Assembly (NCBI GenBank): GCA_028707275.1
Contig: JAQTUP010000002.1
Location: 59,198 to 123,197, forward strand
Origin: Gallionella sp.
Lineage (GTDB): Bacteria; Pseudomonadota; Gammaproteobacteria; Burkholderiales; Gallionellaceae
Direction: 5' to 3'
DNA length: 64,000 bases
Part shown: positions 2,158 through 35,752 of the stretch, piece after piece
Position numbering within the stretch: position 1 is the first letter of the stretch
Layout of the letters: every line of letters starts with the position of its first letter
Notes under the pieces: generated by a model
What the model saw: the letters and a program-made list of their open reading frames with translations, nothing else
The model's database searches: none
What the model was told of the DNA's origin: nothing
Program-made: the position numbers and the translations under genes

Positions 2158-2550
2158 TCAACGCAGAAGCGTATCTTCTATCTCATGCAGTAACAAAGGC
2201 AGTTCATTTTGGCAGTGTTTGAGGCAACCTGCCCGTTCACCGCCACAGCGCAACCCTATCGAGACACCTGTTTGCAACTTTTCCCACGCCTCGGGTGCGA
2301 TGTGTTTTCCGGCCTGCTGCCGGTTGCGCAGATAACGCGCATAGCGCGCCATGCTGCGAAAATAATGTTCCAGCCGGGGCAAGTGCACAGCACGCGCGCC
2401 GCCGAACAAGGTGTCAAATTCCTGGTGCAACTGATCCAGTTGCACGCGATCCAGCGGTACGCCGGATCGAACAATGGCGGCAGCCCGTTGCATGCGCTCA
2501 CAACAATCCTCACAAAAGGCCTGTGACAGAGCCTCAAAAATCTTATCCAT
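2158..2550 (-). CDS. Hypothetical Cys-rich 130-aa protein, translationally coupled to cheB
   Basis: The ORF overlaps the cheB start by 8 nt on the same strand. It has six Cys residues in CxxCC and CxxxxxxCxxxC spacing. No recognisable family. Confidence 0.5.
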   Translation of the reverse strand: MDKIFEALSQAFCEDCCERMQRAAAIVRSGVPLDRVQLDQLHQEFDTLFGGARAVHLPRLEHYFRSMARYARYLRNRQQAGKHIAPEAWEKLQTGVSIGLRCGGERAGCLKHCQNELPLLLHEIEDTLLR

Positions 2551-3619
2551 CCAAAAGCGCCTGTTCGCGCACCAGGCGACTCAAATAGGCGGGCAGATGA
2601 TCCAGCGCCACCACCTTGTCCACCGCATCCAGTGCAATGGCCGTGCCCGGCATGCCGTAGACGACGGCGCTCATCTCGTCCTGCACCACCGTGTGACTGC
2701 CGGCACTACGCATAGCCAACAAGCCATCCGCGCCATCCTCCCCCATGCCGGTCAGCAATACGCCGATGGCACGATGCTGACAGATCTGCGCCACCGAATT
2801 GAACATGGGGCTGACTGACGGACGAAAGCCATTGCACGGCGACGCCTGACTCAGGCACACCATCAGTCCGGATGAACCGCGACTGAGCAAAAGGTGCTGG
2901 TCGTCGGGCGCAAAATAAATTGTGCCCGCCTTGAGCGTTTCGTCCTGTTCTGCCAGCTTGACGTTGAGCTGGGTATTATCAGACAGCCAGGCTGCCAGGC
3001 CACCGACAAATCCCTTTGAGATATGTTGCGTGACAAGGATGGGCACAGGAAAATGGCCGGGCAACAGCGAAAAAATTTGCTGTAGCGCCTGCGGACCACC
3101 GGTCGAGCAGCCCATTGCCACCAGCTCATATATCTGACCGGGCTGAGGGAGGGGCGCGTCATAGATTTCAGCCTCAATCGTACGCTCGATTTTTTTCCGA
3201 CTGAACAATTTCACCTGTGACATGGCACGCACGGTATCCACCAGATCGCGGCGTATGGACTCGAAATCAGGATGGGCGAAGCCGCGCGGTTTTTCCATGA
3301 CGGCCAGCGCGCCTTCTTCTATGGCTCGAAAAGTGATGCGCAACTCTTCATCATCCACACTGGAACTGACCACCACGATAGGCACCGGATTGTCAGCCAG
3401 AATCAAACGGGTCGCCTCGAAGCCATCCATCACCGGCATGCGGATGTCCATGGTAATCACATCAGGCGTCAGATCATGTGCCATCTGCACGCCTTCCAGG
3501 CCGTTTTTGGCGTGCCCCACCACCTGCATGTCCGCCTGCTGCTCAAAGATCGCCCGAAGCAGGAGCGCTACGACCGATGAATCTTCCACGATGAGAATAC
3601 GTAACATAATTCCTTTCAA
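2543..3619 (-). CDS. cheB: Chemotaxis response regulator protein-glutamate methylesterase CheB (REC plus methylesterase)
   Basis: It has an N-terminal receiver domain (ILIVEDSSVVALLL...MDIRMPVMDG) and a C-terminal CheB methylesterase domain (IAMGCSTGGPQAL...LLTGMGEDGA). Confidence 0.9.
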   Translation of the reverse strand: MKGIMLRILIVEDSSVVALLLRAIFEQQADMQVVGHAKNGLEGVQMAHDLTPDVITMDIRMPVMDGFEATRLILADNPVPIVVVSSSVDDEELRITFRAIEEGALAVMEKPRGFAHPDFESIRRDLVDTVRAMSQVKLFSRKKIERTIEAEIYDAPLPQPGQIYELVAMGCSTGGPQALQQIFSLLPGHFPVPILVTQHISKGFVGGLAAWLSDNTQLNVKLAEQDETLKAGTIYFAPDDQHLLLSRGSSGLMVCLSQASPCNGFRPSVSPMFNSVAQICQHRAIGVLLTGMGEDGADGLLAMRSAGSHTVVQDEMSAVVYGMPGTAIALDAVDKVVALDHLPAYLSRLVREQALLDG

Positions 3620-3641
3620 TTGCGCGCAAAACCAGTTGAGT

Positions 3642-5951
3642 TCAAATCAGCTGTTCCACGACGTCCAGCAATACCTTGGTTTCAAATTGACCCTTGACAA
3701 TATAGGCCTCGGCGCCAACTTCAATGCCGCGCAGCCGGTCTTCCTCGCGGGCGAGCGAGGTCACGATGATGACCGGCACCGCTTTGAGCCGCTCGCTCTG
3801 TTTAATCAGTGCGGTCAGTTCAAACCCGTTCATTTCCGGCATTTCAATATCCGTCACAACCAGATCAAATGTTTGTTCTTGCAGCATGAGCCATCCCTGA
3901 CGTCCGTTAACCGCCACACTGACCTTGTAGCCTGCATGCTCCAGGATACTTTTCTCCAGAGTACGGGTCGTAATGGAATCATCCACCACCAGCACAGACG
4001 GCACCGGAGCACTCTCGGCGCCGTCATCGCGCGGTGTGGCAAGACTTGCGCTCAACGCCGAGTCCACCAGATCCGACGGGTTGAGCACCATGATCACCTC
4101 ACCGCTGCCGGTCAGCGTGCCACCGTTGACATTACGCACTGACAGCAGGGGCGGGCGAAACGGCTTGACGACGATTTCACGCTCACCGATCACTTCATCG
4201 ACCAGAAAAGCCACACTATCCCAGCCTTTGGCCACCACGACCACAGGCATGGATTTTTTATGGCTGACTTCAGATTCGGCCAGGCTCAGGATCGCGGCCA
4301 GATCGCGCAACGGAATACTGTGCCCGCGATGCAAGATGGCATGACTGGCTTCGATTTTGATAATCTGGCAAGACTCGATCTCCATCACCTTGTCCACGGC
4401 TGATACCGGAATGGCAAACACCACCCCGCCTGCGCGTACCAGCACGCCATGCTCGGTGGCCAGCGTGATAGGCAGTCTGAGAATAAAGCGCGTACCATGC
4501 CCCTCTTCGGTTTCCAGCTGCACAGAGCCTTTGAGCTTGCGCAGATTTGCAACGACCACGTCCAGCCCCACGCCGCGTCCGGACATGCTGGTGATGATGT
4601 CACGGCTGGAAAAACCGGGACGAAAGATCAGGTTCATGATTTCCTCGCGCCCCATGGAGGCGAGCTCTGCATCGACGACCAGCTTCTTTTTGCGTGCGCA
4701 GTCCGCAATCTTTTCAGCCGAGATGCCAGCGCCATCGTCCTCTACGGTCAATACGACCTGACTGCCTTCGCTGAGAACCGAAATATGCAGACGACCCTCG
4801 GCGGGTTTACCATCCTCCAGCCTTTGTTGCGGCAATTCAATGCCGTGATCGAGCGCATTGCGCAGCAGGTGAATCAACGGGTCGCGGATACCTTCGAGCA
4901 CCATGCGATCAATTTCAATCTCGTCACCGCTGATTTCAAAATTGATTTTCTTACCCAGCTCACGCGCGATGTCCCGCACCTGGCGCGACAGCGGGCGCAG
5001 TAAACTCGCCACGGGAACCTGCCGCATCATGCGTACATTCTGCTGCAAGGATTCCACCAGCAATCCCAGACGACTGCAACTCGAACGCATTTCCCGGTGT
5101 GTCCGGGCACTGGAAGAATCAAGCTCCGCAATCGCATCTGCACTGCGCTTTTGCGCGGCAGCATCAGGGGGCGACGCCCTGTGGGGCACGACCAGCGCCT
5201 GTACACTGTTGCGCAACTGCTGCAAGGAAGCTAAATGATCGTCCATTTCAATTTTTGTGACCTGCAGCGCTTCCATCATCGCGGCCAGATTTTCGAGCTT
5301 CTCCCGGCTGATCCTCACCACCTCCGCTGACGGCCTGGCACGGGCTGACTCCGAAGTATTAACTGATTCGGCGTCTTCATCAGCGCCCGTCGGCGCGATG
5401 CGTTCGACGGGAGGTACGGCGGGCGCCATCGAAGAAGAGGCGGTTTTCTGCGTCGCATGAACGGGTAACGCATTAATGACAGCTGAATCAGCCGGTCCGG
5501 CGCCCTCCTCTGCCACTGACGTCACGGGCATCGCGGACGGCTGTTCGACGAGTGAGGCGACCTTTTCCAGTCGCAGGATCAGCCCCTCCTTGTCGAAGGA
5601 TCGCCCGGCATCAAAGGCTGCCATCGCCTGACGAATCGCGTCCATGGCTTCGAGCACAATATCGGTCACCTCCCCGTCCGGATTGCGCGACTCCCGTTTT
5701 AACACGGCAAAAATACTCTCCAGATGGTGTGCGATGTCGGATACATCATTCACTTCGACCCCGCGCGCAGCACCCTTGATATTATGCGCGGCACGAAATA
5801 CGCCTTCGAGCACCTGACGCTGCTCGTCGCCCGCCGCCCCCTTCTCCAACACCAGCAAACCATCGGTAATCACCTGGAGTTGCTCCTCCAGTTCGATGGC
5901 AAAGGTGTCCATCAGCATGCGCATCAATTCCTGATCAAATCCTAATGGCAT
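3642..5951 (-). CDS. cheA: CheA-CheY hybrid histidine kinase (Hpt, dimerisation, HATPase, CheW-like, C-terminal REC; WspE-like)
   Basis: The Hpt motif (HNIKGAARGVEV), the HATPase_c G-boxes (GRGVGLDVV), a CheW-like domain and a C-terminal receiver (VLVVDDSITTR...DIEMPEMNG) are all present. Confidence 0.9.
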   Translation of the reverse strand: MPLGFDQELMRMLMDTFAIELEEQLQVITDGLLVLEKGAAGDEQRQVLEGVFRAAHNIKGAARGVEVNDVSDIAHHLESIFAVLKRESRNPDGEVTDIVLEAMDAIRQAMAAFDAGRSFDKEGLILRLEKVASLVEQPSAMPVTSVAEEGAGPADSAVINALPVHATQKTASSSMAPAVPPVERIAPTGADEDAESVNTSESARARPSAEVVRISREKLENLAAMMEALQVTKIEMDDHLASLQQLRNSVQALVVPHRASPPDAAAQKRSADAIAELDSSSARTHREMRSSCSRLGLLVESLQQNVRMMRQVPVASLLRPLSRQVRDIARELGKKINFEISGDEIEIDRMVLEGIRDPLIHLLRNALDHGIELPQQRLEDGKPAEGRLHISVLSEGSQVVLTVEDDGAGISAEKIADCARKKKLVVDAELASMGREEIMNLIFRPGFSSRDIITSMSGRGVGLDVVVANLRKLKGSVQLETEEGHGTRFILRLPITLATEHGVLVRAGGVVFAIPVSAVDKVMEIESCQIIKIEASHAILHRGHSIPLRDLAAILSLAESEVSHKKSMPVVVVAKGWDSVAFLVDEVIGEREIVVKPFRPPLLSVRNVNGGTLTGSGEVIMVLNPSDLVDSALSASLATPRDDGAESAPVPSVLVVDDSITTRTLEKSILEHAGYKVSVAVNGRQGWLMLQEQTFDLVVTDIEMPEMNGFELTALIKQSERLKAVPVIIVTSLAREEDRLRGIEVGAEAYIVKGQFETKVLLDVVEQLI

Positions 5952-5982
5952 GATTGCTCGTTTCAGTTATGGGTTAAGCTGC

Positions 5983-7518
5983 CTACAGTTTGTAAGTGCT
6001 GACGCTGTCGCGCAGCCGCTCGGCCACACGGCGCAGGTCTGCCGACGACTGCTTGCTTTGTTGCGCGGTGGTGACAAATTGCGCCGTCACTTTATTGATT
6101 TCTTTCATCGCCAGGGTCACCTGTTCGATGCCGATAAATTTTTGCCGCACTACAGCCGAAATTTGCTGGCTTGCGATGGCCGTTTCACGCACGACTTCAC
6201 CCAACTTGCGCACCACCTCCCCGCTTTTTTGCACCGACAGCATCCCGGCATCCACCCCTTTGCTGCCCTCTTCGGTGGCCATCACTGCGCGATCCGTTGC
6301 ATGCCGTATATCCTGGAGTATCTTTTGCACCTGAGCGGTCGATTGCTGCGATTGCTCCGCCAGCTCACGCACTTCGGCCGCGACGACGGCAAATCCCTTA
6401 CCTGCTTCGCCGGCTTTGGCAGCCTCAATGGAGGCATTGAGCGCCAGCATCTTGGATTGCTGGGCAAGGTTGGTCACGACAGCCGTAATTTCACCGATTT
6501 GCTGTGTCTGCTCGCTGAGCGCCAGTATGGTTTGCGCGATACCTTCGACGCGCTCGCGGATCGCTATCATACCCAAAATAGCCTGTTCTACCGCAACACT
6601 GCCTTGTTCGCTTTCGCGTCTGGCGCGTTCGGCCGACTCCCCTAACACCTGCATTTTCTCCATGGTCTGAGCCGACATGGCCTTGATTTCATCAAGCGAA
6701 GAAGTGGTTTCGTTGACCGCTGCCGCCTGTTCGGAAGCACCGGCCGACTGGCCGTTGATCGACTGCTGCAATTGCTCCAGCGTGCTGTAAATGGTATTGA
6801 TCGCCTCTGTCGTATCCGAGGCCACATGCGCCAGACTTTCTGTCATGCCATTGAGATTACTGCCCAGCTTTGCCAGATCGTCGCTGCCCACCACATCAAG
6901 CCTATGGCTCAAATCGCCCTCGGCCACGCTTGCAATGAAAGTCTGATAGGTCGCCAGTCTGGCCTCAATCTCATCTTTTGACATGCTGACCCCGTTCAGG
7001 TCAGTCATCAAACCATGTATATAGGTATCCATGGACAACTGGGAATCGATGGAGATGATCTTATGCAAGGCTTGCAAAGCCGCCTCCCGCGCACGGGCAT
7101 TCCACCGGTACTGGCGCTGGATCAACTTGACGATCTGGCAACTGTACACACTGTAACTGCCCAAATACCAGCGCGGAGTAAGACCAATTTTGTTGTGGAT
7201 CACACCGATTTTCAACCGCCGTTCAAAATAGGCGTCGCCATAATCTCCATCGAACATTTCCAGCAGATAGCGTTTCTGGGTCGTCTTGAGCCTGTCAATG
7301 TTTGAACCGGCCTCCCCGATGACATTCATCAGTTCGGTATATCGCTCGATATTGGCGTAAAAAGCATCGACAATGACGTCCGAATGCTGCTGGATAAAGG
7401 GACGCAAGGCTTTTAACGCTTGTATGTCCTGATCGCCAAAATCGACAAACTTCTTGCGCGAGGCCTGTTCGTTCGCATCAATACCCATCAACTGGGTCAG
7501 GGACTGGCTAAATTTCAT
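5983..7518 (-). CDS. Soluble globin-coupled methyl-accepting chemotaxis protein (HemAT-like heme-based sensor)
   Basis: It has no TM segments. The N-terminus is a sensor-globin fold (FYANIERYTEL..., LTPRWYLGSY). The C-terminus carries the highly conserved MCP signalling motif (LALNASIEAAKAGEAGKGFAVVAAEVRELAEQS). Confidence 0.85.
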   Translation of the reverse strand: MKFSQSLTQLMGIDANEQASRKKFVDFGDQDIQALKALRPFIQQHSDVIVDAFYANIERYTELMNVIGEAGSNIDRLKTTQKRYLLEMFDGDYGDAYFERRLKIGVIHNKIGLTPRWYLGSYSVYSCQIVKLIQRQYRWNARAREAALQALHKIISIDSQLSMDTYIHGLMTDLNGVSMSKDEIEARLATYQTFIASVAEGDLSHRLDVVGSDDLAKLGSNLNGMTESLAHVASDTTEAINTIYSTLEQLQQSINGQSAGASEQAAAVNETTSSLDEIKAMSAQTMEKMQVLGESAERARRESEQGSVAVEQAILGMIAIRERVEGIAQTILALSEQTQQIGEITAVVTNLAQQSKMLALNASIEAAKAGEAGKGFAVVAAEVRELAEQSQQSTAQVQKILQDIRHATDRAVMATEEGSKGVDAGMLSVQKSGEVVRKLGEVVRETAIASQQISAVVRQKFIGIEQVTLAMKEINKVTAQFVTTAQQSKQSSADLRRVAERLRDSVSTYKL

Positions 7519-7546
7519 GCAACTCTCCGGTTAATTTTCAGAAATT

Positions 7547-8206
7547 TCAAAGAACCTGACGCTGCACGCGCAACGCCGGATCATCCATCAATGCTGCCAG
7601 ATTTAACAGCGTGACGCAGGCGTTGTGAATACCGAGTACATATTCCATATTCGTCACCCCGTTCGACATGAGAGGCGCGGACACATCAGCCTCATGATAT
7701 TTTTCGTTACCATCCACAGCATCCACCAGCAGGCCTGCGCGCATCTGGCCGTGCTTGACCACGATAATGCGCGCATCAACCCCCGACGGAACCGCTGGCA
7801 TACGAAAAAATTGTTTCAGATCCAGTATCGTCAGCAATTCGCCACGATGATTGATCACCCCGGCCACAAATGCAGGCGTGCACGGCACACGGGCAAGATG
7901 CCCCACATAGAGTAACTCTTCCAAATAAGGATAGGGGATACCATAGCGTTCCGCCCCCAGGCGAAAACGCAGGTACTGGCCCCAGGCTTCGTGCTGTGGC
8001 CCGCTCACGGGCCTGGCAATCAACTCGGCACGCGCGGCCAGCATCTTCTGAGAGGCAGCATCCTGCGGCATCAGTGCCGCTGCAAATTGAACAGGAGCCA
8101 AAACAGAAGGGCCGGGCAGCGGCATATCCCCCGCAGGCGGCGGTTCTGAATCCGGCCTGATATCCCTGGCGCCATGCGGCGGATGTTTTTTTCTGATTTT
8201 CGCCAT
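7547..8206 (-). CDS. cheW: CheW-like coupling protein with a Pro-rich N-terminal extension
   Basis: The CheW domain is in the C-terminal 150 aa (GVINHRGELLTILDL...LLVDAV). The N-terminal ~60 aa are low-complexity and Pro-rich. Confidence 0.8.
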   Translation of the reverse strand: MAKIRKKHPPHGARDIRPDSEPPPAGDMPLPGPSVLAPVQFAAALMPQDAASQKMLAARAELIARPVSGPQHEAWGQYLRFRLGAERYGIPYPYLEELLYVGHLARVPCTPAFVAGVINHRGELLTILDLKQFFRMPAVPSGVDARIIVVKHGQMRAGLLVDAVDGNEKYHEADVSAPLMSNGVTNMEYVLGIHNACVTLLNLAALMDDPALRVQRQVL

Positions 8207-8230
8207 ATTTCCTGCCCGTGTTTCGAAAAA

Positions 8231-9739
8231 TTAACGTGAAGCTCCCCGCCTGCCACTGCGGGCACTGCGGGCACTGCGGGCACTGCCGAGCATGCTGATT
8301 TCATTTTGCAAAACCTGTGCGAAACGGCTATAAGTCATTCCGCCCGCGTTGTGCAGCTTGCGTTCCGGTTCTCCTGATTGTGCAAGCTTCAGCGCCGTCC
8401 CCAGGCTTTTGATGCCCTCTGTTAAATTGCCACTTCGCACTTTTAACATGCCGATTTCATAGTGCGCTTCGAGAAATGAGCGATCCAGATACAACGCGCG
8501 GCGCAGAGCATCCTCTGCCTCCTCGATATGATCGAGCTCTGAGAGAATCAGACTCTGAATCAGGTAAGCATGTTTGTTGCCAGGATCCAGTTGCAAGCTT
8601 CGAACACAAGCTCTTTGAGCCTCGTCCAGACGCCCGAGATTCGCCAGCGCGCGGGCGCTCATTTGCCATAGCTTGCTGTTTTCATCCCCTCTCTTGCAGG
8701 CGGCTTCGACCTGCACCAGCACCGCCGACCAGTCCGCGCGATCGAATAACTCGATCAGCTCATCCATCTGTTCATCGGATTGAACAGCGGCGCTATTTTC
8801 CACGGCCATCGTCGGCGCCGGATCCGGCTCTGAATCTGACGACAGCGCCGCATCCGGACACACTCTGGCCTGGTTCGCGGACGGCGCCCCCGGTGCAGAA
8901 GCTTTGTAAAAATAACCCGCAAAGTTCGTTTGCCGCAATTCAAGTGGCGTATGCATGTATTCGACTGGGTCTGACGCGCCCAGCATCAGCACGCCACCTT
9001 CGACAAGACACGATGCATATTGCGCCATACTGCGCCTGACGGCCTCGCGATCCAGATAGATAAACACGTTGCGGCACAGGATCAGATCCATCGCATTGGT
9101 CTGCCCCAGTATCGACGGATAAACATCTGCACTCAGATTAAGGTAAGCAAAATGCGCCATCTGCCTGATCTGGCTGTGAATTTCATATTTATTCCCCGCC
9201 GGAGTAAACCAGCGCTCGCGCACCGCCTGCGGTGTCGCGCGAAAGGACCAGTCCGAATAGCGCCCGCACATCGCGCGAGCCACGACTTCACTGTTGATGT
9301 CGGTTCCCAGCAAATGGATGCGCCACTGCACAATATCCGGAATAAGCTCCAGCAACAACAAGGCCATCGTGTAGAGCTCCTGCCCCTCCGAGCATCCGGC
9401 ACTCCAGACGCGCAATGACAAATTCCCACTTGCACGCTTTGCGTCTATCATCCGGGGCAGCAACGTCTCTCGCAGCAATTCGATCTGGCAGCTGTCGCGA
9501 AAAAAATAACTCTCGCCTACTGTCACCCCTGAAATCAAATATTGAAGAGGCTCGCTCCAATCAGCAGCGCGTTGAAGCTCATCCAGATAGTGCGCCGCGT
9601 TGCGATAAAAAAAATGTGCACATCCCTTGCGCAGCGTATCGCGCAGATTGGACAACTGATGATCTTGCAGGACGATACCGGTACGCCGCGCAATCAGCCG
9701 ACAAAATGCATCTTCAAGTTCGGCGGCAAGACTATCCAT
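8231..9739 (-). CDS. cheR: CheR-type MCP methyltransferase with a C-terminal TPR domain (WspC-like)
   Basis: CheR SAM-binding motifs (ESYFFRD, RVWSAGCSEGQE, LCRNVFIYL) are followed by TPR repeats. The C-terminal tail contains a 9-mer tandem repeat encoding ARSARSARS. Confidence 0.9.
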   Translation of the reverse strand: MDSLAAELEDAFCRLIARRTGIVLQDHQLSNLRDTLRKGCAHFFYRNAAHYLDELQRAADWSEPLQYLISGVTVGESYFFRDSCQIELLRETLLPRMIDAKRASGNLSLRVWSAGCSEGQELYTMALLLLELIPDIVQWRIHLLGTDINSEVVARAMCGRYSDWSFRATPQAVRERWFTPAGNKYEIHSQIRQMAHFAYLNLSADVYPSILGQTNAMDLILCRNVFIYLDREAVRRSMAQYASCLVEGGVLMLGASDPVEYMHTPLELRQTNFAGYFYKASAPGAPSANQARVCPDAALSSDSEPDPAPTMAVENSAAVQSDEQMDELIELFDRADWSAVLVQVEAACKRGDENSKLWQMSARALANLGRLDEAQRACVRSLQLDPGNKHAYLIQSLILSELDHIEEAEDALRRALYLDRSFLEAHYEIGMLKVRSGNLTEGIKSLGTALKLAQSGEPERKLHNAGGMTYSRFAQVLQNEISMLGSARSARSARSGRRGASR

Positions 9740-9763
9740 GCAGATACAGATATGTGTCGCCCA

Positions 9764-10231
9764 TCATTGCTCGGCGCCCTGATACAGCCCGGAATTGATC
9801 AGCCAGGCCGCATCGAGCAGGAATGCCAGCCCCGTATCCGTATGCGCACAGGCACGAAACGCCGCATCATGGCGTCCCAGTTCGCCGGTAAGCTGCAAGT
9901 CCGACTCTTGCAGCATCTGAATTCCTTTAATGTCCTGAACGATGACCCCCATGCGTTTTAGCCCGTGCATGCACACCACAATAGGCGTATCCAGCGTATA
10001 AGGTAATGACGGCAGACCCAGACGAATCGCAAGATCAATCACGGGCACACTGCTGCCCGCATAATTCATGATACCCGCCACATGCGGTGCACTGCCCGGC
10101 ATGACATGCAGCGCCACAAGCGAAATAGTGCGTTCCACATACCCCAGCTCAATGCAGGCCAGCATCCCCCCCATCTTCAACACCAACACCTGGCAGTTTC
10201 CCGACAAAACCTCGTCAATATCGGCTCTCAT
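9764..10231 (-). CDS. cheW: CheW coupling protein
   Basis: A 155-aa single-domain CheW (VAGIMNYAGSSVPVIDL...IVQDI). Confidence 0.85.
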   Translation of the reverse strand: MRADIDEVLSGNCQVLVLKMGGMLACIELGYVERTISLVALHVMPGSAPHVAGIMNYAGSSVPVIDLAIRLGLPSLPYTLDTPIVVCMHGLKRMGVIVQDIKGIQMLQESDLQLTGELGRHDAAFRACAHTDTGLAFLLDAAWLINSGLYQGAEQ

Positions 10232-10234
10232 GGC

Positions 10235-11311
10235 TTAGTCCTTCGCATACCATTCCATGACCCCGCAGCCCTGAATTTCTTCCAGAACATCGACACTGCG
10301 ATCCTGACTGACTCTCTCTGGCCGCAGCAAGGCTTCGGGACGCTCGCGTACAATAGACAGAAATATTGCCATCAAAGTTGGGTCCCAAAATCCGCTGGCC
10401 GTTTCCTGCTCCATGATCTGTATGACTTTATCTCGCGGGAACGCGGGTTTATAGGGGCGTTCACTGGACAGAGCGTCAAAAATATCGACAATCTGGAACA
10501 CGCGGGCGATCAGGGGGATTTCCTCGCCTGCCAGTCCTGCCGGATAGCCCGTGCCATTCCATTTTTCATGGTGGCATCGCACGATATCGGCCGTGCGTTG
10601 CATGGTACGCAACGGGCTGCACAGCGCCGCGCCTATCACCGTATGCTGCTTCATGATCTGCCATTCCGCAGCATCCAGCGCCCCCTTCTTGAGCAGGATA
10701 TTATCCGGAATACCCAGTTTCCCGATGTCGTGCAGAACCCCGCCGCGCCGCAAGGCATCGAGTTCTTCGGCACCCATCCCCAGCGCCCGGCCAAAGACTA
10801 CCCCGGTGTGAGCCAGGCGATCGCAATGGTCTCCGGTATTGGCATCGCGCGCCTCGACCATGCGCGCCAGCGCGAACAACACCGATTTGGCGTCGTCCAG
10901 CTGGTCGGTCAAACGCTTGCGCTCGATGGCGGCCCTGACTCTTGCTGTGAGCTCGATCGAATTGAATGGCTTGGTGACATAATCGTCCGCCCCCACATCC
11001 ATCCCCCTGACCACATCGTCGGGCGACCCCAAAGACGTCACCATGATGATGGGCAACAATTTCAGGCCGAGTTCCTCGCGGATACGGCGACAGGTTTCAA
11101 AGCCGTCAAGACCTGGCATGATGACATCGAGCAACACCAGATCAAAGGCTTCGTGGCGCAACATTTCCAACGCCTGCATCCCGTCGCAGGCCTCGACGAG
11201 ATGGTATTCCGGAGGTCTCAACACATAACCCAATAGCTTGCGGTTAGTCGCCATATCATCGACGGTGAGCACTTTAGAGCCAGTCAAGGCTGATTCCGAC
11301 ACCAAACTCAT
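10235..11311 (-). CDS. Response regulator with an HD-GYP domain (c-di-GMP phosphodiesterase)
   Basis: It has an N-terminal REC (VLTVDDMATNR...LDVIMPGLDG) and a C-terminal HD-GYP domain (HDIGK, HHEKWNGTGYP). Only 3 nt separate it from the downstream cheW. Confidence 0.85.
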   Translation of the reverse strand: MSLVSESALTGSKVLTVDDMATNRKLLGYVLRPPEYHLVEACDGMQALEMLRHEAFDLVLLDVIMPGLDGFETCRRIREELGLKLLPIIMVTSLGSPDDVVRGMDVGADDYVTKPFNSIELTARVRAAIERKRLTDQLDDAKSVLFALARMVEARDANTGDHCDRLAHTGVVFGRALGMGAEELDALRRGGVLHDIGKLGIPDNILLKKGALDAAEWQIMKQHTVIGAALCSPLRTMQRTADIVRCHHEKWNGTGYPAGLAGEEIPLIARVFQIVDIFDALSSERPYKPAFPRDKVIQIMEQETASGFWDPTLMAIFLSIVRERPEALLRPERVSQDRSVDVLEEIQGCGVMEWYAKD

Positions 11312-11331
11312 ACGACCCCTATCTTCCTTAA

Positions 11332-11452
11332 CCGATGTGACTGCGTCACATCAGTTATGTATTCAAATCAACTTCGCCGGGGGCAGCCCGGCTGCTGGCG
11401 ACTTTCTTTTGTGTCGCCAAAAGAAAGTCGCTAAAGAAAAGGCGCCCCCGGT
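11332..11452. repeat. Truncated copy (5' ~120 bp) of a ~380-bp MITE-like repeat family
   Basis: It shares the terminal palindrome (gatgtgactgcgtcacatcag), the core caaatcaacttcgccgggggcagcc and the hairpin cgactttcttttg-N6-caaaagaaagtcg with the copies at 40900, 52846 and 58093. Confidence 0.6.
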
Positions 11453-11544
11453 AAAAACCTTTTTTCATCCGCCCCGATCTCCGGCCGATGAACCAGTATG
11501 CGCCGACAGGCGGCCAAAACATCTGCCGCGCAGCTGAGCTCACT

Positions 11545-13209
11545 TTATGCAGGATAGCTGGCATCGGCGAGCACCACCTGATTGCGCCCTGCATGTTTGG
11601 CTTTATACAGCGCCATATCTGCCGCATCCGTCAATCTGGATGCATTGTCAAAATTTTTCATCTCGGCCAGGCCACAGCTGAAGCTGGCTGAAAATTCCTG
11701 GTCTTTTGCCAGGTGGCGCAGTTGTGAAAAGTCATGACGAATGGCGTCCATGACTTTCATCGCGGCAGCCCCATCGGCATCGATAAGAACCACGGCAAAT
11801 TCCTCCCCCCCGTAACGCCCGACCAAATCGTTCTCGCGCAGGCGCTGTTTTAGCAGCCTGGACAGGCTCTTTATCACGCGATCGCCCACCGGATGTCCGT
11901 AGCTGTCGTTGACCTTCTTGAAGTGATCGATATCCAGCATCGCGAAGGTGATGCTCCTGGCATGCCTTTTGGCCTGGGCGATTTGACCGACCAGCTGATC
12001 CTTGATGGCGATATGGTTGAGCAACCCGGTCAGACCGTCGCGCACCATGAAAGAACGCAGCAACAAGGAGCGTTTGATCCGGCTGTTAATGGACGAGACG
12101 AGCTGATGAGCCTCGATCGACTTGGTCAGGAAGTCGTCCGCCCCCAGAACGAGCGCTGCAAGCTGCTTGTCCAGATTGGTTTCGGAGGACAAAAATACGA
12201 TGGGGATGCTGACGAAGGCGTCAATTTGCCGGATGACTTTGGCCAACTCAAGCCCGCTGCATCCGGGCATATAAATATCCACCAGAATCAGGTCAGGAGA
12301 AAAATCCTGCAATGGTCGCATCACGTCAAGCGGGTCGTTCACCACCTTGACGGACATACCGGCATGTTCGAGCACGCGGGCGTGATAATTCGACAGATTC
12401 ACATCATCATCCACGATCAAAACTCTGGGAGCCGGTGCGACTGAAGCTGAGGTCAGTTCGTCGAGCTTGTCGACCAGAACACCCAGATTCACGGGTTTCA
12501 TCAGGTAGGCCACGCCGCCTGCCCTTACCGCTTCGAGCCTTACTTCCAGCTCGCTGTGCGACGAAAGGAAAATGACCTGCAGCGGCGTCTGCCGGTTGCG
12601 TTGCAATTCCGGCATGACATGCACCCCACCCAGAGGATCCTCGGGAAAGTTGATGTCCATCAACACCACGCCCCTGGAATCCTGTCGTATGGCACGGCGA
12701 AAATCCTCCAGCGTGTAAAACAGCTTCACGTCATATTCGAAATACTTCAGCTGCGTTTTGAGTTCCCAGGCGAGCTCGCGATCATGCTCCACGACGAAAA
12801 TGCGGCGAGTGTTGCGCGCTTTCGCACGAACAGCCTTGACCGGGATTAAATTAACCTGCGCAGAACCGGGCTTGTCAGGCTGATTTGCCGCCAGGCTCAC
12901 CCCTGCGAGCAGAAGGCTCACCTTGTCGCGCTGCACCGCATTCAACTCCGTTTTTGCCTGTCCCAGAAAATAAAGATAGTTTTCCAGTTCGCGCGCCGAA
13001 TCGCTGAGCGCAGAAAAGCCAAACGTCTTGCCAGACCCCGTCAGGCCGTGCACCAGACGGTGCAAATTCAAAAACTCATCCTGATCCCAGCCTATAATTG
13101 GAAACTGGCGCCAGGACTGTTCTATCTGTTTGATTTTTTCAGGCAACTGCCCGGCATATGCCTGGCTTAACAGCTTTAGCATGAGCTGAAGTTCATTGAC
13201 CTCAGACAT
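11545..13209 (-). CDS. Hpt-REC-REC-GGDEF diguanylate cyclase response regulator
   Basis: An N-terminal Hpt-like motif (LHRLVHGLTGSGKTFG) is followed by two receiver domains and a GGDEF domain (RYGGEEFAVVL). Confidence 0.8.
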   Translation of the reverse strand: MSEVNELQLMLKLLSQAYAGQLPEKIKQIEQSWRQFPIIGWDQDEFLNLHRLVHGLTGSGKTFGFSALSDSARELENYLYFLGQAKTELNAVQRDKVSLLLAGVSLAANQPDKPGSAQVNLIPVKAVRAKARNTRRIFVVEHDRELAWELKTQLKYFEYDVKLFYTLEDFRRAIRQDSRGVVLMDINFPEDPLGGVHVMPELQRNRQTPLQVIFLSSHSELEVRLEAVRAGGVAYLMKPVNLGVLVDKLDELTSASVAPAPRVLIVDDDVNLSNYHARVLEHAGMSVKVVNDPLDVMRPLQDFSPDLILVDIYMPGCSGLELAKVIRQIDAFVSIPIVFLSSETNLDKQLAALVLGADDFLTKSIEAHQLVSSINSRIKRSLLLRSFMVRDGLTGLLNHIAIKDQLVGQIAQAKRHARSITFAMLDIDHFKKVNDSYGHPVGDRVIKSLSRLLKQRLRENDLVGRYGGEEFAVVLIDADGAAAMKVMDAIRHDFSQLRHLAKDQEFSASFSCGLAEMKNFDNASRLTDAADMALYKAKHAGRNQVVLADASYPA

Positions 13210-13621
13210 GACGTCTTTCCCAGATGGTCTGAACCTGGCCGGACAAAGTCATCGGGTCGAATGGTTTCGGGATAACGTCCAGCGCACCCAGCGCCTTATA
13301 GCCTGCGACCTCGCCCGGCTGCACCTTGGCTGTCATGAAGATCACAGGGGTCGTCGCAAATTCCGGGATTTCGCGCAGGTGAGCCAGGGTCGTCGGGCCA
13401 TCCATGCCGGGCATCATCACATCCATCAATATGAGCTGGGGTTTGAATTCGGGCGCGCGTATCAGGGCATCCTTCCCGGAACTGCATATTTCCAGCGTGT
13501 ATCCACCGACCATTTCCAGCGCCAATCTTGCCACCACCTGGATATCCGGCTCATCCTCCACATACAGCACCCGCACCAATTTTTCCGTCATACCCCTCCC
13601 TTTTCGAAATTCCCGATGCAC
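13202..13621 (-). CDS. Single-domain response regulator (CheY-like receiver)
   Basis: A 139-aa REC domain (VLYVEDEPDIQ...MDVMMPGMDG...FMTAK). Its stop overlaps the start of the downstream GGDEF gene. Confidence 0.8.
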   Translation of the reverse strand: MHREFRKGRGMTEKLVRVLYVEDEPDIQVVARLALEMVGGYTLEICSSGKDALIRAPEFKPQLILMDVMMPGMDGPTTLAHLREIPEFATTPVIFMTAKVQPGEVAGYKALGALDVIPKPFDPMTLSGQVQTIWERRHV

Positions 13622-13692
13622 GCGGCATCATATGTGAAAACAGCCCGAAACTCCACGCACCCCTTATCGCCCGAAGCAGCACCCGCATTTTC

Positions 13693-15288
13693 TCATGCTT
13701 CGTCGGCACCGGCAGGGATAGGCTGTCGCCAGAGCGGAAACTCGACATAAAAAACAGTGAGCACATCGGGCTTGGAATCAAAGCCTATCTTCCCGCCCAT
13801 TTGTTCGACGATGGCGCGGGAGATGACCAGCCCAAGCCCCGTTCCGCCCTTCTTGCGCGTATCTGATGAATCAGCCTGAGAAAATTTTTGAAAAATCTGA
13901 CCGCGAAATTGCCCCGGTATGCCGCAGCCTTGATCAGATACAGAGATACGCACACGAGAGTCATCGGCGTTCACCGCCACGAGCACTTTCGCGCCTGCCG
14001 GGGAAAACTTGGCCGCATTGGAGAGCAGATTGGCCATCACCTGCAAAAACCGGTTGATATCCAAAAACAGCGTTACGTCAGATAAATCGCCTGCCAGCTC
14101 GTACGTGACCCCGAACTGTTGTGCATAGGCCATGTTGCCCTCCAGCGCCTGTTTCAACAAGGGAATCAAGCGGATGGTCTGCGGATGAAAATCCATCTTC
14201 CCCGCCTCTATCTTTTCCATATCGAGAATATCATTCACCAGCAAGATCAGGCGCTCGCAATTCTTGTAAGCGACATCGACCAGCGATTTTGCCTGAGGCG
14301 GCAACTCACCGGCGACCCCTCCTGCCATCAGGCCTAAGGATCCTCGTATCGAGGTCAAAGGAGTGCGCAATTCATGACTGACCGTCGAGATAAACTCGGC
14401 TTTCATACGCTCTATTTTGACGCGCCCGGTAATATCGCGAACGATCCTGGATGTGCCTGTAATCTTTCCATCTTCATCCAGAATAGGCGAAATACTGACC
14501 GAGACATCGACCAACTGCCCGCCTTTACTCAGGCGAACCGTTTCAAAATGTTCGATGCGTTCGCCGCGAAGAATGCGCGCAAGAATCCCTGATTCCTCAT
14601 TTTCACGACCTGGCGGGATGAGCATAGCCATCCGCTGGCCGACCGCTTCCTGTTTCGTGTATCCGAACAGAGCGACAGCGGCAGGATTCCAGGTGGTAAT
14701 GACGCCATCCAGCGTCTTGCTGATGATCGCATCCTCGGACGATGCGATGATTGAAACATAACGCGCCTGGAACAGGGCGTGTTCCGAGGCGCGCGCAAGC
14801 TGCCGCCCCCATTCGAGCTCTTCGCTCACGCATTGCGCCAGATCACGCAGCATGTTCAATTGTTCGGCGCTCACCTCGCGCGGCTGGTAATCTATCACGC
14901 ACAGCGTTCCTGCCCGCTGTCCTGTGCGCAGCGTCAGCGGATACCCGGCATAGAAGCGTATATGAGGCACACCACTCACCAGCGGATTGTCGGCAAAACG
15001 CGGATCGAGGGCGGCGTCAGGAATGAGAAAAACCCGGTCATCGAGTATGGCGTGACCACAAAAAGAGATATTGCGAGGGGTTTCAGACACTTCCAGCCCC
15101 TGACTGGATTTAAACCATTGCCGCTGACTGTCGATCAGCGAGACCAGCGCGACGGGTACGCCAAACAGATGCTGAGCCAGCCGGGTCAGGCGATCGAAAC
15201 GCTCTTCAGGTGGCGTATCGAGTATAGCCAGCGCGCGCAGCGCTGCGATACGATCTGCTTCATCAAATGGGTCGGGTGGCTCTAACAA
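13693..15288 (-). CDS. Cytoplasmic GAF-PAS sensor histidine kinase
   Basis: It has GAF and PAS domains, a HisKA H-box (STVSHELRTPLTSI) and HATPase_c (GTGLGLVISRAIVEQMGG). No TM segments. Confidence 0.85.
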   Translation of the reverse strand: MLEPPDPFDEADRIAALRALAILDTPPEERFDRLTRLAQHLFGVPVALVSLIDSQRQWFKSSQGLEVSETPRNISFCGHAILDDRVFLIPDAALDPRFADNPLVSGVPHIRFYAGYPLTLRTGQRAGTLCVIDYQPREVSAEQLNMLRDLAQCVSEELEWGRQLARASEHALFQARYVSIIASSEDAIISKTLDGVITTWNPAAVALFGYTKQEAVGQRMAMLIPPGRENEESGILARILRGERIEHFETVRLSKGGQLVDVSVSISPILDEDGKITGTSRIVRDITGRVKIERMKAEFISTVSHELRTPLTSIRGSLGLMAGGVAGELPPQAKSLVDVAYKNCERLILLVNDILDMEKIEAGKMDFHPQTIRLIPLLKQALEGNMAYAQQFGVTYELAGDLSDVTLFLDINRFLQVMANLLSNAAKFSPAGAKVLVAVNADDSRVRISVSDQGCGIPGQFRGQIFQKFSQADSSDTRKKGGTGLGLVISRAIVEQMGGKIGFDSKPDVLTVFYVEFPLWRQPIPAGADEA

Positions 15289-15346
15289 TATAGCTCTCCT
15301 ACTTTGTCTGTTTCAGGGCTTTCATCTGCGGTGCAATCGGTTCACC

Positions 15347-17278
15347 TCAATATTTCACCTCGTCCTTCCACATCTTTGCTTCAAAACGCACCACGCGGTT
15401 TCTCCCTGCCTCCTTGGCGTGATACATGGCAACATCGGCATATTTTACAGCCTGCCAGAAAGTATCACTGTCCAGCGGAAACTCTGAAATTCCAATGGAG
15501 ATAGTTTTTTGCAGCACTTCGCCGGGCAGCTGCACCTTCATTTTTTCAACGTCGGCGCGTATTTTTTCGGCCACTTTGTCGGTGGCCTCCCCTGTCGAGT
15601 CCTGCATAATCACGAGAAACTCCTCTCCACCATAACGTATCACAAGGTCAGCCGCGCGCACCGATGCCTGTATGGTTCTGGCCAGCGCCTTGAGAACCAG
15701 ATCCCCCGCGTCATGACCGTAGGTATCATTCACCATCTTGAAGTAATCAAGGTCGAGCATCAGCACCGAGAGCTGGCTCTTGCGACGCTGATTGGAAGCT
15801 ACCAGAGTTTCGGCGAATTCTTCCAGAAAACGGCGGTTGTGCAGACCTGTCATGGCATCGGTCAGATTGGAGGCGCGCAACGTATCCATCAGCCGCTTGG
15901 CCTCAATGACGGGTGCGGCTTCGCGCAAATAAACATTCAGATAGGGTAGAAATTCATGGATGCGTTCACCATCGTCCCGATGTGAGACCAGTTGCAGCAC
16001 GCTACCCACCATGCCCGACTGAATAATCGGAATACACACATGCACACGATCAGCCCCATCACGGTCAGATTGAAAGGCGTAACAGATTCCGGGCACGTTG
16101 ATCGAATCGATGATGTGCCCGGTGCGCCGGGCGCGACAACTTTCAGCATGAAGCAGAATTTGTGGGTCGCACCAGCGACAGGGGGCATCGATCTCGCCAT
16201 CTACCACCAGGGGCGCCATTCGACTGGTGCCCGTCACCATTTCATAGATCGAAAAATCATGGATAGCGAAGCGTTCCTGCAAAACCGATGACAGTCGCCG
16301 GTATATTTCCGGCTTGGTTTCATCCTCTTCGATCGCCTGCTTGAAATGCGCGGCCTCAATCAGTCCGGCGACGCGACTGATCGTGGAATTGAGCAAATTC
16401 TCATGCTCGTGTGTCGGCGTTTGCTGCAAAAGTTGTGCGACATCCTGGCTGATGGTTGTCAGTCCATTTTGAATGAATTTCAGCAGACTGTTCAAGTCCG
16501 CCGCAACCTGCCCTATTTCATCATCGGTACGTCGCTCGATATTGGCATGAAAATCCCCCTGAATGGCGCGTTCAACGGTCTCCTGCACATCGCGCGCGGT
16601 GACGATCACAGGTTTGACCAGCCGCCGGAAAAACCACAGCATCACCAGCATAAACGAAACGATTGCCAGCACCATGACAGACGAAGTCATGTAGGCACTG
16701 CGCATCATCTCGCTCATGGACATCGTAATCGTAATCACGCCCAGCACTGTCCCTTCCGCTACATTGTGGCATTGCAGGCAGTTGATATGTCCGGCACGAG
16801 TGGCAATATAGGGCAGCGTGCCGCGAAAGGCCAGTCCGTCGTTTTCGTCGATCAGTTTATAGTAAGCCTGTCCGTCCTGCATGACCTGCGCCTCAATTTT
16901 GTCCCTGATTTGAACTCGTTTCGAGTCCTTGCCAAACTGTGCGGCAACGCTGTCAGAGCGGATCACCCTGACTGTACGCATTCCTTCCACAGAGGCCAGA
17001 TGACCCAGAAAATCATCCCGATTTTCTGCAGAATTGTGCAGCATGGATTCACTAAGACTGATGCCGACAATATCGGCAATTGAACGGATATGCTCACGCT
17101 CGGTTGTAATGGTGAATTGGCGAAATGACAGAAAACTCACCACCACGACGACCACGATCATGGACAGGGTTATTACAATGGAAAAGGTCGTAACTTTGGT
17201 ATCGAGTTTCATTCTGGCAACCCTAAAAAGTCTTTTTGAATTAACTCTGACGTATTGTGACATAACAGATGGCTGCAT
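15347..17278 (-). CDS. Membrane sensor diguanylate cyclase with a periplasmic CxxCH (heme c) motif, HAMP, a Cys-rich cytoplasmic domain and GGDEF
   Basis: Two TM helices bracket a ~140-aa periplasmic domain containing CLQCH. The cytoplasmic part has HAMP and a GGDEF domain (RYGGEEFLVIM). The start codon is uncertain, and an internal Met at 17212 is possible. Confidence 0.8.
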   Translation of the reverse strand: MQPSVMSQYVRVNSKRLFRVARMKLDTKVTTFSIVITLSMIVVVVVVSFLSFRQFTITTEREHIRSIADIVGISLSESMLHNSAENRDDFLGHLASVEGMRTVRVIRSDSVAAQFGKDSKRVQIRDKIEAQVMQDGQAYYKLIDENDGLAFRGTLPYIATRAGHINCLQCHNVAEGTVLGVITITMSMSEMMRSAYMTSSVMVLAIVSFMLVMLWFFRRLVKPVIVTARDVQETVERAIQGDFHANIERRTDDEIGQVAADLNSLLKFIQNGLTTISQDVAQLLQQTPTHEHENLLNSTISRVAGLIEAAHFKQAIEEDETKPEIYRRLSSVLQERFAIHDFSIYEMVTGTSRMAPLVVDGEIDAPCRWCDPQILLHAESCRARRTGHIIDSINVPGICYAFQSDRDGADRVHVCIPIIQSGMVGSVLQLVSHRDDGERIHEFLPYLNVYLREAAPVIEAKRLMDTLRASNLTDAMTGLHNRRFLEEFAETLVASNQRRKSQLSVLMLDLDYFKMVNDTYGHDAGDLVLKALARTIQASVRAADLVIRYGGEEFLVIMQDSTGEATDKVAEKIRADVEKMKVQLPGEVLQKTISIGISEFPLDSDTFWQAVKYADVAMYHAKEAGRNRVVRFEAKMWKDEVKY

Positions 17279-29475: not shown

Positions 29476-29611
29476 ATCGATAGAGCGCTATCCGAAAAGA
29501 TATCTAATTCTACTGCGAAACCATGCCAGACATATACCACGAAAATTATCATCCAGAAAATAACCATAATTATCAATTAGATGTAAAATTTATGGATTGC
29601 ATCAGCTTTGC

Positions 29612-29627
29612 TGGCACAGCGATTGCA
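29612..29627 (+). promoter_or_regulatory. Sigma-54 (RpoN) -24/-12 promoter for rtcB
   Basis: TGGCAC-N5-TTGCA matches the consensus exactly, about 55 nt upstream of the rtcB ATG and divergent from rtcR. Confidence 0.7.
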
Positions 29628-29682
29628 ATGTAACCGGTACGCAGCAGAGATACCGAATAACAAAAATACCAGAGGTTGAACA

Positions 29683-35659: not shown

Positions 35660-35752
35660 TTTGCTTATTCCCTATGAACAGCGCACAGCTTAAACCATTG
35701 TCTTAAAAACTGGGGCCACTATAGGCTCATGCGATCCCCAAGGTCAGCAACA

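Follow-up and report, generated by a model that had tools for sequence, protein, structure and literature searches.

A conserved globin-receptor/HD-GYP chemosensory cassette beside two unrelated c-di-GMP-producing sensor modules in a Gallionella genome

Signalling genes were analysed at positions 2158-17278, on the minus strand, of a 64-kb window (the whole stretch of DNA under study) from a metagenome-assembled genome (MAG) of Gallionella sp. This 15-kb run is best described as a conserved chemosensory cassette, with a globin-coupled methyl-accepting chemotaxis protein (MCP) as receptor and a response regulator combining a receiver (REC) with an HD-GYP domain, beside two unrelated sensor modules that produce cyclic diguanylate (c-di-GMP). 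The cassette occupies 2158-11311, a phosphorelay 11545-15288 and a haem-c sensor cyclase 15347-17278, and we consider it fairly likely that these are three adjacent c-di-GMP signalling modules that evolve separately. In the reading that we favour with moderate confidence, the cassette is a pathway of the alternative cellular function (ACF) type in which an array of receptors binding O2 or another gas controls the phosphorylation of the HD-GYP protein, while each of the neighbouring modules acts by itself on the common c-di-GMP pool. The original prediction of an integrated circuit that sets c-di-GMP in both directions is not supported. No relative that we examined has the upstream 6 kb of this supposedly single wired circuit of 15 kb at the orthologous position, the unit of kinase, REC and Hpt-REC-REC-GGDEF (Hpt, histidine phosphotransfer domain) recurs elsewhere with kinases of its own, and the junction is a gap filled with a repeat.

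The chemosensory cassette and its conservation

The list of open reading frames (ORFs) contains twelve consecutive minus-strand ORFs at 2158-17278, not the eleven genes counted originally. They are spaced by -8 to 71 nt with the sole exception of a 233-nt gap at 11312-11544, so that the description of a closely spaced same-strand run with one gap was accurate, and the domain content that had been assigned to the genes was matched by Pfam. The gene order is as follows: a protein with transmembrane (TM) segments, CxxCH, HAMP and GGDEF, a GAF-PAS kinase, a REC, an Hpt-REC-REC-GGDEF protein, REC-HD-GYP, CheW, CheR-TPR, a second CheW, the globin MCP, CheA-REC, REC-CheB and an ORF of 130 aa. Every signalling gene detectable in the window falls within this run (local phmmer screen and Pfam on the other large ORFs), the remaining 49 kb showing no additional one, and no flagellar gene was found among the about 37 ORFs of the window put through Pfam. 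The CheA and Hpt-REC-REC-GGDEF proteins are each 100% identical to NCBI proteins, the CheA match being from a Gallionella sp. MAG. That the genes belong to the same transcription unit, as had been stated, is an assumption rather than an observation. About 10% of the genes of such a genome are devoted to signalling (PMC3770913), and in a signalling-rich genome the same-strand adjacency of signalling genes is no evidence of wiring.

The modular distribution of the genes was observed by comparing the contexts of CheA homologues in Gallionella/Gallionellales assemblies (L005, L007 and L015), GCA_002632355.1 (L010), Spartinivicinus poritis (L011), Methylospira mobilis (L009) and a Planctomycetes MAG (L012). 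Five of these loci (L005, L007, L010, L011 and L015) have in common the order REC-HD-GYP, CheW, CheR-TPR, CheW, globin-MCP, CheA-REC and CheB, with variable extras (a ParA-like ATPase before the second CheW; a second MCP, of the NIT type, before CheA-REC), and a small P1-like ORF stands behind CheB in the Gallionellaceae and in L010. In Methylospira and the Planctomycetes MAG the che core is present and the HD-GYP gene is missing. The cassette of eight genes is also syntenic in about 20 metagenome loci. The claim that the combination is not a described archetype is half right: the set of twelve genes is idiosyncratic to this genome, and the eight-gene cassette is widespread, although the library searched yielded no experimental account of it. 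Because the identities of the HD-GYP protein (80, 73, 69 and 48%) are in step with or above those of CheA (69, 63, 57 and 45%) locus by locus in tblastn comparisons, the HD-GYP gene is regarded as an integral member of the cassette, and its earlier description as the response regulator next to the che core was borne out by its co-conservation as the first gene in relatives. In the che loci of L005, L007, L010 and L011, tblastn found no orthologue of any of the four upstream genes, and each relative that we examined has different genes on either side of the cassette.

A wider survey comprised 87 loci anchored on CheR-TPR, 80 of them from a scan of metagenome contigs with an alignment of eight CheR-TPR orthologues, and the loci were annotated with HMMs built from the sequences of this analysis (a scan of genome contigs with a single CheR-TPR sequence gave three TPR-only matches and no relatives). 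The core CheW, CheR-TPR, CheW, MCP, CheA-REC and CheB recurs across the survey with interchangeable outputs. REC-HD-GYP lies immediately upstream of the core in 17 of the 59 assessable loci, and elsewhere in the locus for a few more; the other outputs are a downstream CheY, CheC and PAS-GGDEF set, REC-REC-GGDEF, WspR-like REC-GGDEF (seen only in one distant family member, L044), REC-EAL, and hybrids of REC and histidine kinase. The globin receptor and the HD-GYP protein tend to occur together (both in 13 loci, HD-GYP only in 3, globin only in 6, neither in 20; Fisher p = 3.6e-4, uncorrected for shared ancestry). A gene for a c-di-GMP enzyme abuts the che core in all eight genome loci (the window, L005, L007, L009, L010, L011, L012 and L015), whereas many survey loci carry the REC-histidine kinase hybrid or no detectable c-di-GMP gene instead. 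Modular outputs of this kind, with multidomain response regulators, were described for CheR-TPR clusters by Muñoz-Martínez et al. (PMC3447774), who identified such clusters with the ACF class, and one REC-HDc regulator stands in the CheR-TPR cluster table of 2012, where it was called a phosphatase and not studied (PMC3447774). Between cheR-TPR and the second cheW, a gene for a ParA/MinD-like ATPase is inserted at L007:5698-6348, L010:4787-5434 and several metagenome loci (the window copy has none); this ATPase is compatible with a cytoplasmic array and recalls the partitioning proteins of cytoplasmic chemoreceptor clusters.

The cassette co-encodes a core Che set of MCP, CheA, CheW, CheR and CheB with Pfam E-values of 1e-22 to 1e-58 and with the catalytic motifs in the translations. 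Its first gene encodes the REC-HD-GYP response regulator (10235-11311; Pfam REC 1.2e-28, HD_5 5.9e-31), in which the HD and HHE...GYP motifs and the Asp, Thr and Lys residues of the receiver are present, and which conserves the H, HD, H, HH...GYP and D positions in an alignment with PmGH. Its relatives in the PDB are PmGH 4MCW (2e-41), V-cGAP3 5Z7C (9e-45) and PA4781 4R8Z, and an exact-match search with the window protein returned only one contig, from the same organism. We infer that this protein is the output phosphodiesterase of the cassette; a role in c-di-GMP hydrolysis is predicted because the catalytic motifs are intact and the closest solved relatives are active phosphodiesterases, and the choice of c-di-GMP over 3'3'-cyclic GMP-AMP (3'3'-cGAMP) as the probable substrate draws on the genomic context.

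Two CheW-like coupling proteins flank the methyltransferase: one of 155 aa (9764-10231; Pfam CheW 4.3e-24), syntenic in all relatives, and one of 219 aa with an N-terminal extension (7547-8206; 1.7e-27), also syntenic. CheR (8231-9739; Pfam CheR 7.3e-44) carries C-terminal TPR repeats that match several TPR families. The receptor (5983-7518; Protoglobin-HAMP-MCPsignal, Pfam Protoglobin 8.7e-44) has a sensor domain that matches HemAT-Bs (PDB 1OR4) with E = 8e-26, its Tyr54 (B10) and His108 (F8) aligning with the distal Tyr70 and the proximal His123 of HemAT. No TM or hydrophobic segment was found in it, so it should be soluble, and the earlier view of a cytoplasmic, haem-based receptor agrees with this and with the conservation of both ligand residues. 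In its signalling domain there are two 14-residue insertions, one per arm, relative to Tsr of E. coli (36H), and the domain aligns without gaps to PcaY of P. putida (PcaY_PP), which we take to be a member of the 40H class; because of these two comparisons the receptor was assigned to 40H. Receptors of this class serve F6, type IV pilus (Tfp) and ACF systems, and they include the homologues of WspA (PMC11253619). The hybrid CheA (3642-5951; Hpt-HATPase-CheW-REC in Pfam) consists of P1 (Hpt, His56), a linker, P3-P4, a CheW-like P5 and a C-terminal REC, and its core matches CheA cores in the PDB at about 1e-69. Pfam detected no P2 in CheA, the P2 position being occupied by a low-complexity linker of 175 residues rich in Ala, Pro and Ser, and P2 is poorly detected by HMMER (PMC10782961). 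CheB (2543-3619) is a methylesterase with an N-terminal REC (Pfam CheB_methylest 1.2e-58; NCBIfam CheB subfamilies). The 3' end of the cassette lies 10 nt from a convergent MscS-like gene.

The last gene of the cassette (2158-2550), the start of which overlaps the cheB stop by 8 nt, encodes a protein of 130 aa that had been noted as a Cys-rich ORF. It does have 6 Cys, but it is better identified as a CheA-P1/Hpt-like helical bundle, that is, a stand-alone P1-like five-helix protein: it reaches 23.4 bits with Pfam Hpt, under the cut-off of 24.6, and its AlphaFold2 model, built from an alignment of 43 homologues (essentially Gallionellaceae), has a pLDDT of 88.7 and, by structure comparison, a predicted P1 helical-bundle fold. 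The family conserves the motif HQExD-TLxGGARAV together with Cys13, Cys16 and Cys102. The motif LHQEFDTLFGGARAV lines up with AAHNIKGAARGV of the cassette CheA, and where DTLFGGARAV is matched with HNIKGAARGV of CheA, an invariant Asp46 takes the position of the phospho-His (H-x-x-K-G, helix B), with His42 one helical turn before it. An hhalign comparison of the family with CheA P1 domains gave a short match of 8 columns that is not significant (E = 0.12), in the register GGARAVHL/GAARGVEV. The canonical phospho-His is probably replaced by Asp46 in this protein, to judge from the motif match. On a metagenome contig (L031:20628-21497) an in-frame fusion joins the P1-like domain, HQExD motif included, to a CheY-like receiver, and in most relatives a CheY-like gene follows the P1-like gene (the window copy lacks this CheY and also the CheC/GGDEF tail); because of this fusion and this gene order, binding of the P1-like protein to receiver domains is suggested. 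The family is small, conserved and so far unnamed, and it may represent a new way to regulate CheA phosphotransfer.

The cassette is best read as an ACF-type, i.e., non-flagellar, pathway, a call made from architectural hallmarks (CheR-TPR, CheA-REC without detectable P2, two CheWs, a 40H receptor and an in-cluster multidomain response regulator). Fusions of CheR with TPR occur predominantly in ACF clusters (PMC3447774), and these fusions, P2-less CheA-REC and in-cluster multidomain response regulators are reported ACF features (PMC3447774, PMC10782961). As references we used the wsp cluster of the Ralstonia solanacearum megaplasmid (L096; MCP-CheW-CheR-CheW-CheA/REC-[CheB]-REC-GGDEF) and the che genes of E. 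coli. A neighbour-joining tree and the identities with WspE and E. coli CheA did not place the cassette in a class. Identities with the Ralstonia Wsp proteins are 28% for CheR and 21-22% for CheW (for the CheW of 219 aa, 22% with WspB against 36% with the CheW of E. coli), and CheR, CheW and CheB are no closer to Wsp than to the Che proteins of E. coli. Descent from a Wsp system was rejected on these grounds; the label Wsp-like, as given originally, stands for the architecture and fails for the sequences.

The upstream modules, the junction and the rest of the window

The upstream 6 kb belong to a different system from the cassette, with a complete His-Asp-His-Asp relay and its own kinase. The relay comprises a GAF-PAS-HisKA-HATPase histidine kinase without TM segment (13693-15288; Pfam), a single-domain REC of 139 aa (13202-13621; Pfam REC 2.4e-22), the stop of which overlaps the next start by 8 nt, and an Hpt-REC-REC-GGDEF diguanylate cyclase of 554 aa (11545-13209; Pfam; GGEEF, RxxD). 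All relay residues are present (H-box SHELRTPL of the kinase, LMDVMMPG of the REC, HGLTGSG of the Hpt domain and LVDIYMPG of the terminal REC), so that the 139-aa REC would be the intermediate receiver and the cyclase the terminal output. The original prediction counted two Hpt/REC-GGDEF cyclases in the run; there are two cyclases, and only this one has Hpt and REC domains. It is 57-71% identical to a large Gallionellaceae/Nitrotoga family, and its pair with the REC, including an identical 8-nt overlap, is found behind a sensor kinase at four further loci (L013, L014, L098 and L100), the kinases ahead of it varying in their input domains (CHASE-PAS and MASE3-PAS, GAF-PAS in the window). Identity with the che-linked REC-REC-GGDEF proteins of two survey loci (L041 and L054) is about 27%. 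We considered the window cyclase as a che output of the HtChe2 type and rejected this as the primary reading in view of 27% against 60-71% identity and of its own kinase context. Crosstalk between the cassette and the relay is possible, yet it is not indicated by conservation.

At two of the related loci (L013:12483-14901 and L014:2624-5054) the relay adjoins genes for a REC, for a protein with a double zinc ribbon and for an MshEN-T2SSE ATPase. The MshEN domain binds c-di-GMP, and this neighbourhood suggests that the relay cyclase feeds a pilus or secretion ATPase. In another Gallionella MAG (L098:1844-3397) a PAS-GGDEF-hemerythrin protein is encoded ahead of the relay, in parallel to the haem-c GGDEF protein of the window; an O2- or redox-sensing cyclase upstream of the relay may be a recurring pairing.

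The sensor diguanylate cyclase (15347-17278) is a neighbouring module outside the conserved che cassette. It has two TM segments enclosing a periplasmic CLQCH motif, followed by HAMP, a GAF-like domain and GGDEF (Pfam GGDEF 1.3e-47; GGEEF and an RxxD I-site). The family has 1050 representatives, many of which begin at query residue 23; because homologues begin there, the true start is likely Met23 at 17212, which would make the annotated ORF 22 codons too long. Over 37 homologues of 24-48% identity C145, C148 and H149 (CxxCH) are invariant, as is the cytoplasmic C393, and C348, C359 and C377 are nearly so; these four cytoplasmic Cys lie in the GAF-like domain between HAMP and GGDEF and suggest a second metal, Fe-S or redox site beside the periplasmic haem. 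When taken in isolation, the periplasmic and middle domains of the window protein had no significant Pfam match; some homologues match the Mcp40H-20_sensor, Tll0287-like and GAF models of Pfam. Like the haem-c sensors GSU0582 and GSU0935 of Geobacter and the Tll0287-like sensors, the window protein has a single periplasmic CxxCH between two TM helices and then HAMP; unlike them, it has GGDEF as its output and, ahead of this, a GAF-like domain in which four Cys are conserved.

The two blocks are separated by the intergenic gap of 11312-11544, which contains a hairpin element (11364-11452) and, shortly before the ribosome-binding site of the HD-GYP gene, a 13-bp palindrome (11329-11357). The repeat that had been noticed in the gap is one copy, 89 nt long, of this dispersed hairpin element; with the others at 40927-41035 (+) and 58360-58468 (-) there are 3 copies in the window against 0 expected. 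It consists of nested hairpins of about 90-110 nt, a 14-bp stem GCGACTTTCTTTTG/CAAAAGAAAGTCGC inside CCGGGGGC/GCCCCCGG, and an internal hairpin of 20 nt, present in the other two copies, is missing from the one at the che locus. The element looks like a REP/MITE-type repeat of this genome. The RNA of the gap folds with -102 kcal/mol (z = -5.0 against shuffled controls), and Rfam has no family for the element and found no riboswitch in the region, its matches being tRNAs only. The gap is likely the boundary between transcription units. Since the HD-GYP gene of the relatives always follows an intergenic region of about 90-290 nt after unrelated genes, we infer that a promoter of its own serves the cassette. 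Scans for the consensus sequences of promoters and terminators gave counts at or below shuffle expectation and were uninformative for operon structure, and a search for sigma-54 and sigma-28 motifs upstream of HD-GYP orthologues found nothing conserved.

Immediately upstream of the signalling run lies an IS66-family remnant (17441-18370, +), made up of orf2 (TnpB_IS66) and an internally deleted transposase of 138 aa that retains only the zinc-finger and C-terminal motifs; it fits with a locally rearranged region. An AAA_21/SMC_N ATPase is encoded at 23095-25170, and a gene for RtcR, a sigma-54 activator, is divergent from rtcB at 27880-31162, with two tRNA genes next to them (31016-31162). A low-GC island at 34341-37600 (GC 0.41 at 36-38 kb) encodes an integrase of the IS3 type (rve) and a restriction endonuclease of the GmrSD family and is probably a mobile defence island. 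Four tRNA genes (41494-41901) adjoin one copy of the hairpin repeat. An ORF at 56478-57674 (+) matches an M48 peptidase at its N-terminus and, weakly, a pilin domain at its C-terminus. The combination is unusual; it may be a genuine fusion, or the ORF caller may have joined two genes.

Proposed mechanism and alternative readings

In the mechanism proposed for the cassette, the soluble, HemAT-like 40H receptor would form cytoplasmic arrays with the two CheWs and the hybrid CheA-REC, and binding of O2 (or NO or CO) to the receptor haem would alter CheA autophosphorylation. From His56 of CheA-P1 the phosphoryl group would pass to REC-HD-GYP as the output, changing c-di-GMP hydrolysis, to CheB for adaptation, which CheR-TPR would oppose, and to the REC of CheA itself, which could act as a sink or regulator. 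The role of the P1-like protein would be accessory: it would probably bind to receiver domains and modulate the flow of phosphoryl groups. The second module would be an independent His-Asp-His-Asp relay from the GAF-PAS kinase through the single REC to the Hpt and REC of the diguanylate cyclase, and the third a one-component cyclase with a periplasmic haem-c sensor. While synteny, domain content and conserved catalytic and ligand residues were observed directly, the binding of haem and gas, the phosphotransfer partners and the direction of regulation are read from them and are best taken as predictions, and so is the physiological output, plausibly the decision between a motile and an attached or stalk-forming state of a microaerophilic iron oxidiser in O2/Fe(II) gradients.

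Several observations weigh against this reading. The core of CheA is equidistant from the two references, with 33% identity to WspE and 34% to E. coli (F7) CheA. Many relatives have a CheY and a CheC/CheX phosphatase after CheB, which could point to motor control. By E-value the closest solved match of the HD-GYP protein is a 3'3'-cGAMP phosphodiesterase (V-cGAP3), so its substrate is uncertain. In the Gallionella genome that comprises L015 and L013 the kinase-REC-Hpt-REC-REC-GGDEF module is about 6 kb from the cassette, and consensus scans revealed neither a canonical promoter nor a canonical terminator in the gap, so that read-through from the upstream genes could occur.

The last two points bear on the view that the whole run is one supra-operon and one circuit, in which CheA, or its REC through the Hpt domain, phosphorylates both the HD-GYP protein and the Hpt-REC-REC-GGDEF cyclase and O2, NO or redox state sets c-di-GMP both ways. 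Such a circuit would account for the common strand, the short spacings and the clustering of all signalling genes of the window at 2158-17278; a hybrid CheA-REC with an Hpt-bearing cyclase makes a chemically sensible relay, and HtChe2 does use an Hpt-REC-REC-GGDEF protein as the output of its CheA-REC (PMC5907407). We nevertheless consider it unlikely, for L005, L007, L010 and L011 lack the upstream block at the orthologous position, and here as in four other genomes the cyclase has a kinase of its own ahead of it and a REC of its own to which it is translationally coupled; it is 60-71% identical to its kinase-linked homologues and only about 27% to the che-linked REC-REC-GGDEF proteins. The blocks are also separated by the 233-nt gap with its mobile-looking repeat, and even in the L015/L013 genome the relay lies on the other side of the cassette, past a helicase gene on the opposite strand. 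By analogy with HtChe2, the CheA-REC of the cassette might feed the neighbouring Hpt-REC-REC-GGDEF protein in addition to the HD-GYP protein, giving reciprocal control of synthesis and breakdown; we regard this as quite improbable.

HemAT mediates aerotaxis in Bacillus and Halobacterium, and the cassette could on this precedent be a flagellar pathway of an F class with a HemAT receptor, the HD-GYP protein being separate and fed by another kinase. The single-domain CheY and the CheC/CheX phosphatase of the relatives would suit such a role, as would the better scores of the 219-aa CheW and of CheB against E. coli than against Ralstonia Wsp, and 40H receptors occur in F6 systems as well (PMC11253619). 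Flagellar aerotaxis is nonetheless improbable: CheR-TPR, the P2-less CheA-REC and the multidomain response regulator are reported ACF features (PMC3447774, PMC10782961), the window is free of flagellar genes among the ORFs scanned, its copy of the cassette is without any CheY, the CheY-CheC pair of the relatives is always followed by a PAS-GGDEF gene, and HD-GYP is conserved as the first, co-evolving gene of the cassette. Keeping the pathway architecture that we favour, one may still ask whether the HD-GYP protein cleaves 3'3'-cGAMP or is mainly a c-di-GMP-binding or trigger protein, since its best PDB match is the cGAMP-specific V-cGAP3 (9e-45 against 2e-41 for PmGH) and it reaches only 166 bits with the NCBIfam model of the NosR-family c-di-GMP phosphodiesterase, the cut-off of which is 400. 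The difference between the two E-values is, however, marginal, GGDEF or EAL genes flank the cassette across the eight genome loci, many relatives end with PAS-GGDEF, and no cGAMP synthase (DncV/CD-NTase) was found among the window ORFs scanned; such a role is very unlikely.

For the reading that we favour, a chemosensory control of c-di-GMP breakdown through HD-GYP, the implications would be as follows. The chemosensory pathways that we found with experimental c-di-GMP control (Wsp, HtChe2 and Chp) act via diguanylate cyclases. If the cassette works as proposed, it would be a chemosensory route to the breakdown of c-di-GMP with an identifiable and tractable input, the HemAT-type haem sensor, whereas the natural signal of Wsp is still unclear, and direct tests could be made of how the cassette turns input into output and of what methylation-based adaptation contributes to the control of a second messenger. 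Microaerophilic iron oxidisers hold their position in opposing gradients of O2 and Fe(II) and switch between swimming and stalk or biofilm formation, of which a pathway from O2 to c-di-GMP is a plausible part. A bolder and tentative possibility is that the cassette represents a new and widespread type of pathway, in which a cytoplasmic globin array, adapting and able to bind O2, drives c-di-GMP breakdown and not its synthesis via REC-HD-GYP and a P1 mimic with Asp in place of His, perhaps redox-sensitive through its Cys, gates phosphotransfer to receivers.

Comparison with known systems

In the limited library of literature searched we found no experimental study of this cassette, of a chemosensory pathway with HD-GYP as output or of a comparable pathway with a globin receptor. 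The closest characterised systems are Wsp and HtChe2 of Halomonas, and pathways of this kind are known to control c-di-GMP (PMC8846402, PMC5907407, bioRxiv 10.1101/2024.04.09.588698). The cassette resembles Wsp in having two CheWs, CheR-TPR, a P2-less CheA-REC, CheB and a 40H receptor, with a REC-bearing c-di-GMP enzyme as output and no flagellar genes nearby. It differs in that its receptor is soluble and globin-coupled, whereas that of Wsp (WspA) is a membrane protein with a 4HB domain, and in that its output is an HD-GYP phosphodiesterase encoded first, whereas that of Wsp is a REC-GGDEF cyclase (WspR) encoded last. The MCP gene of the cassette stands between the second cheW and cheA, unlike in Wsp, and there is the extra P1-like protein; the order wspABCDEFR is absent, the order of the cassette being response regulator, CheW, CheR, CheW, MCP, CheA, CheB and P1-like protein.

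HtChe2 of Halomonas titanicae KHS3 likewise has a 40H receptor, CheA-REC, CheR-TPR, two CheW-like proteins and a c-di-GMP output (PMC5907407), clusters of its type show a patchy spread across Proteobacteria as the cassette does, and its cyclase has the same Hpt-REC-REC-GGDEF architecture as the one next to the cassette. However, the order in HtChe2 is MCP-CheB-CheR-CheA-CheY-DGC-CheW-CheW (DGC, diguanylate cyclase) without HD-GYP, its receptor binds purines via a periplasmic domain, unlike the soluble globin receptor of the cassette, and its cyclase is inside the operon, whereas that of the window belongs to a kinase-linked family and lies across the 233-nt repeat-filled gap. Like HemAT of Bacillus subtilis (PDB 1OR4), the window receptor is soluble and joins a globin sensor to an MCP signalling domain, but it has HAMP and a 40H signalling domain, unlike HemAT, and it is part of a CheA-REC/CheR-TPR/HD-GYP cassette, whereas HemAT feeds a flagellar (F1) pathway via a classical CheA and CheY. 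Like RpfG of Xanthomonas, PA4781 and the PmGH type, the predicted output protein is a REC-HD-GYP, in which the HD and GYP motifs are intact and the phospho-acceptor Asp is present; known proteins of this architecture pair with classical kinases (e.g., RpfC), whereas the partner implied by gene order in the window is an adapting CheA.

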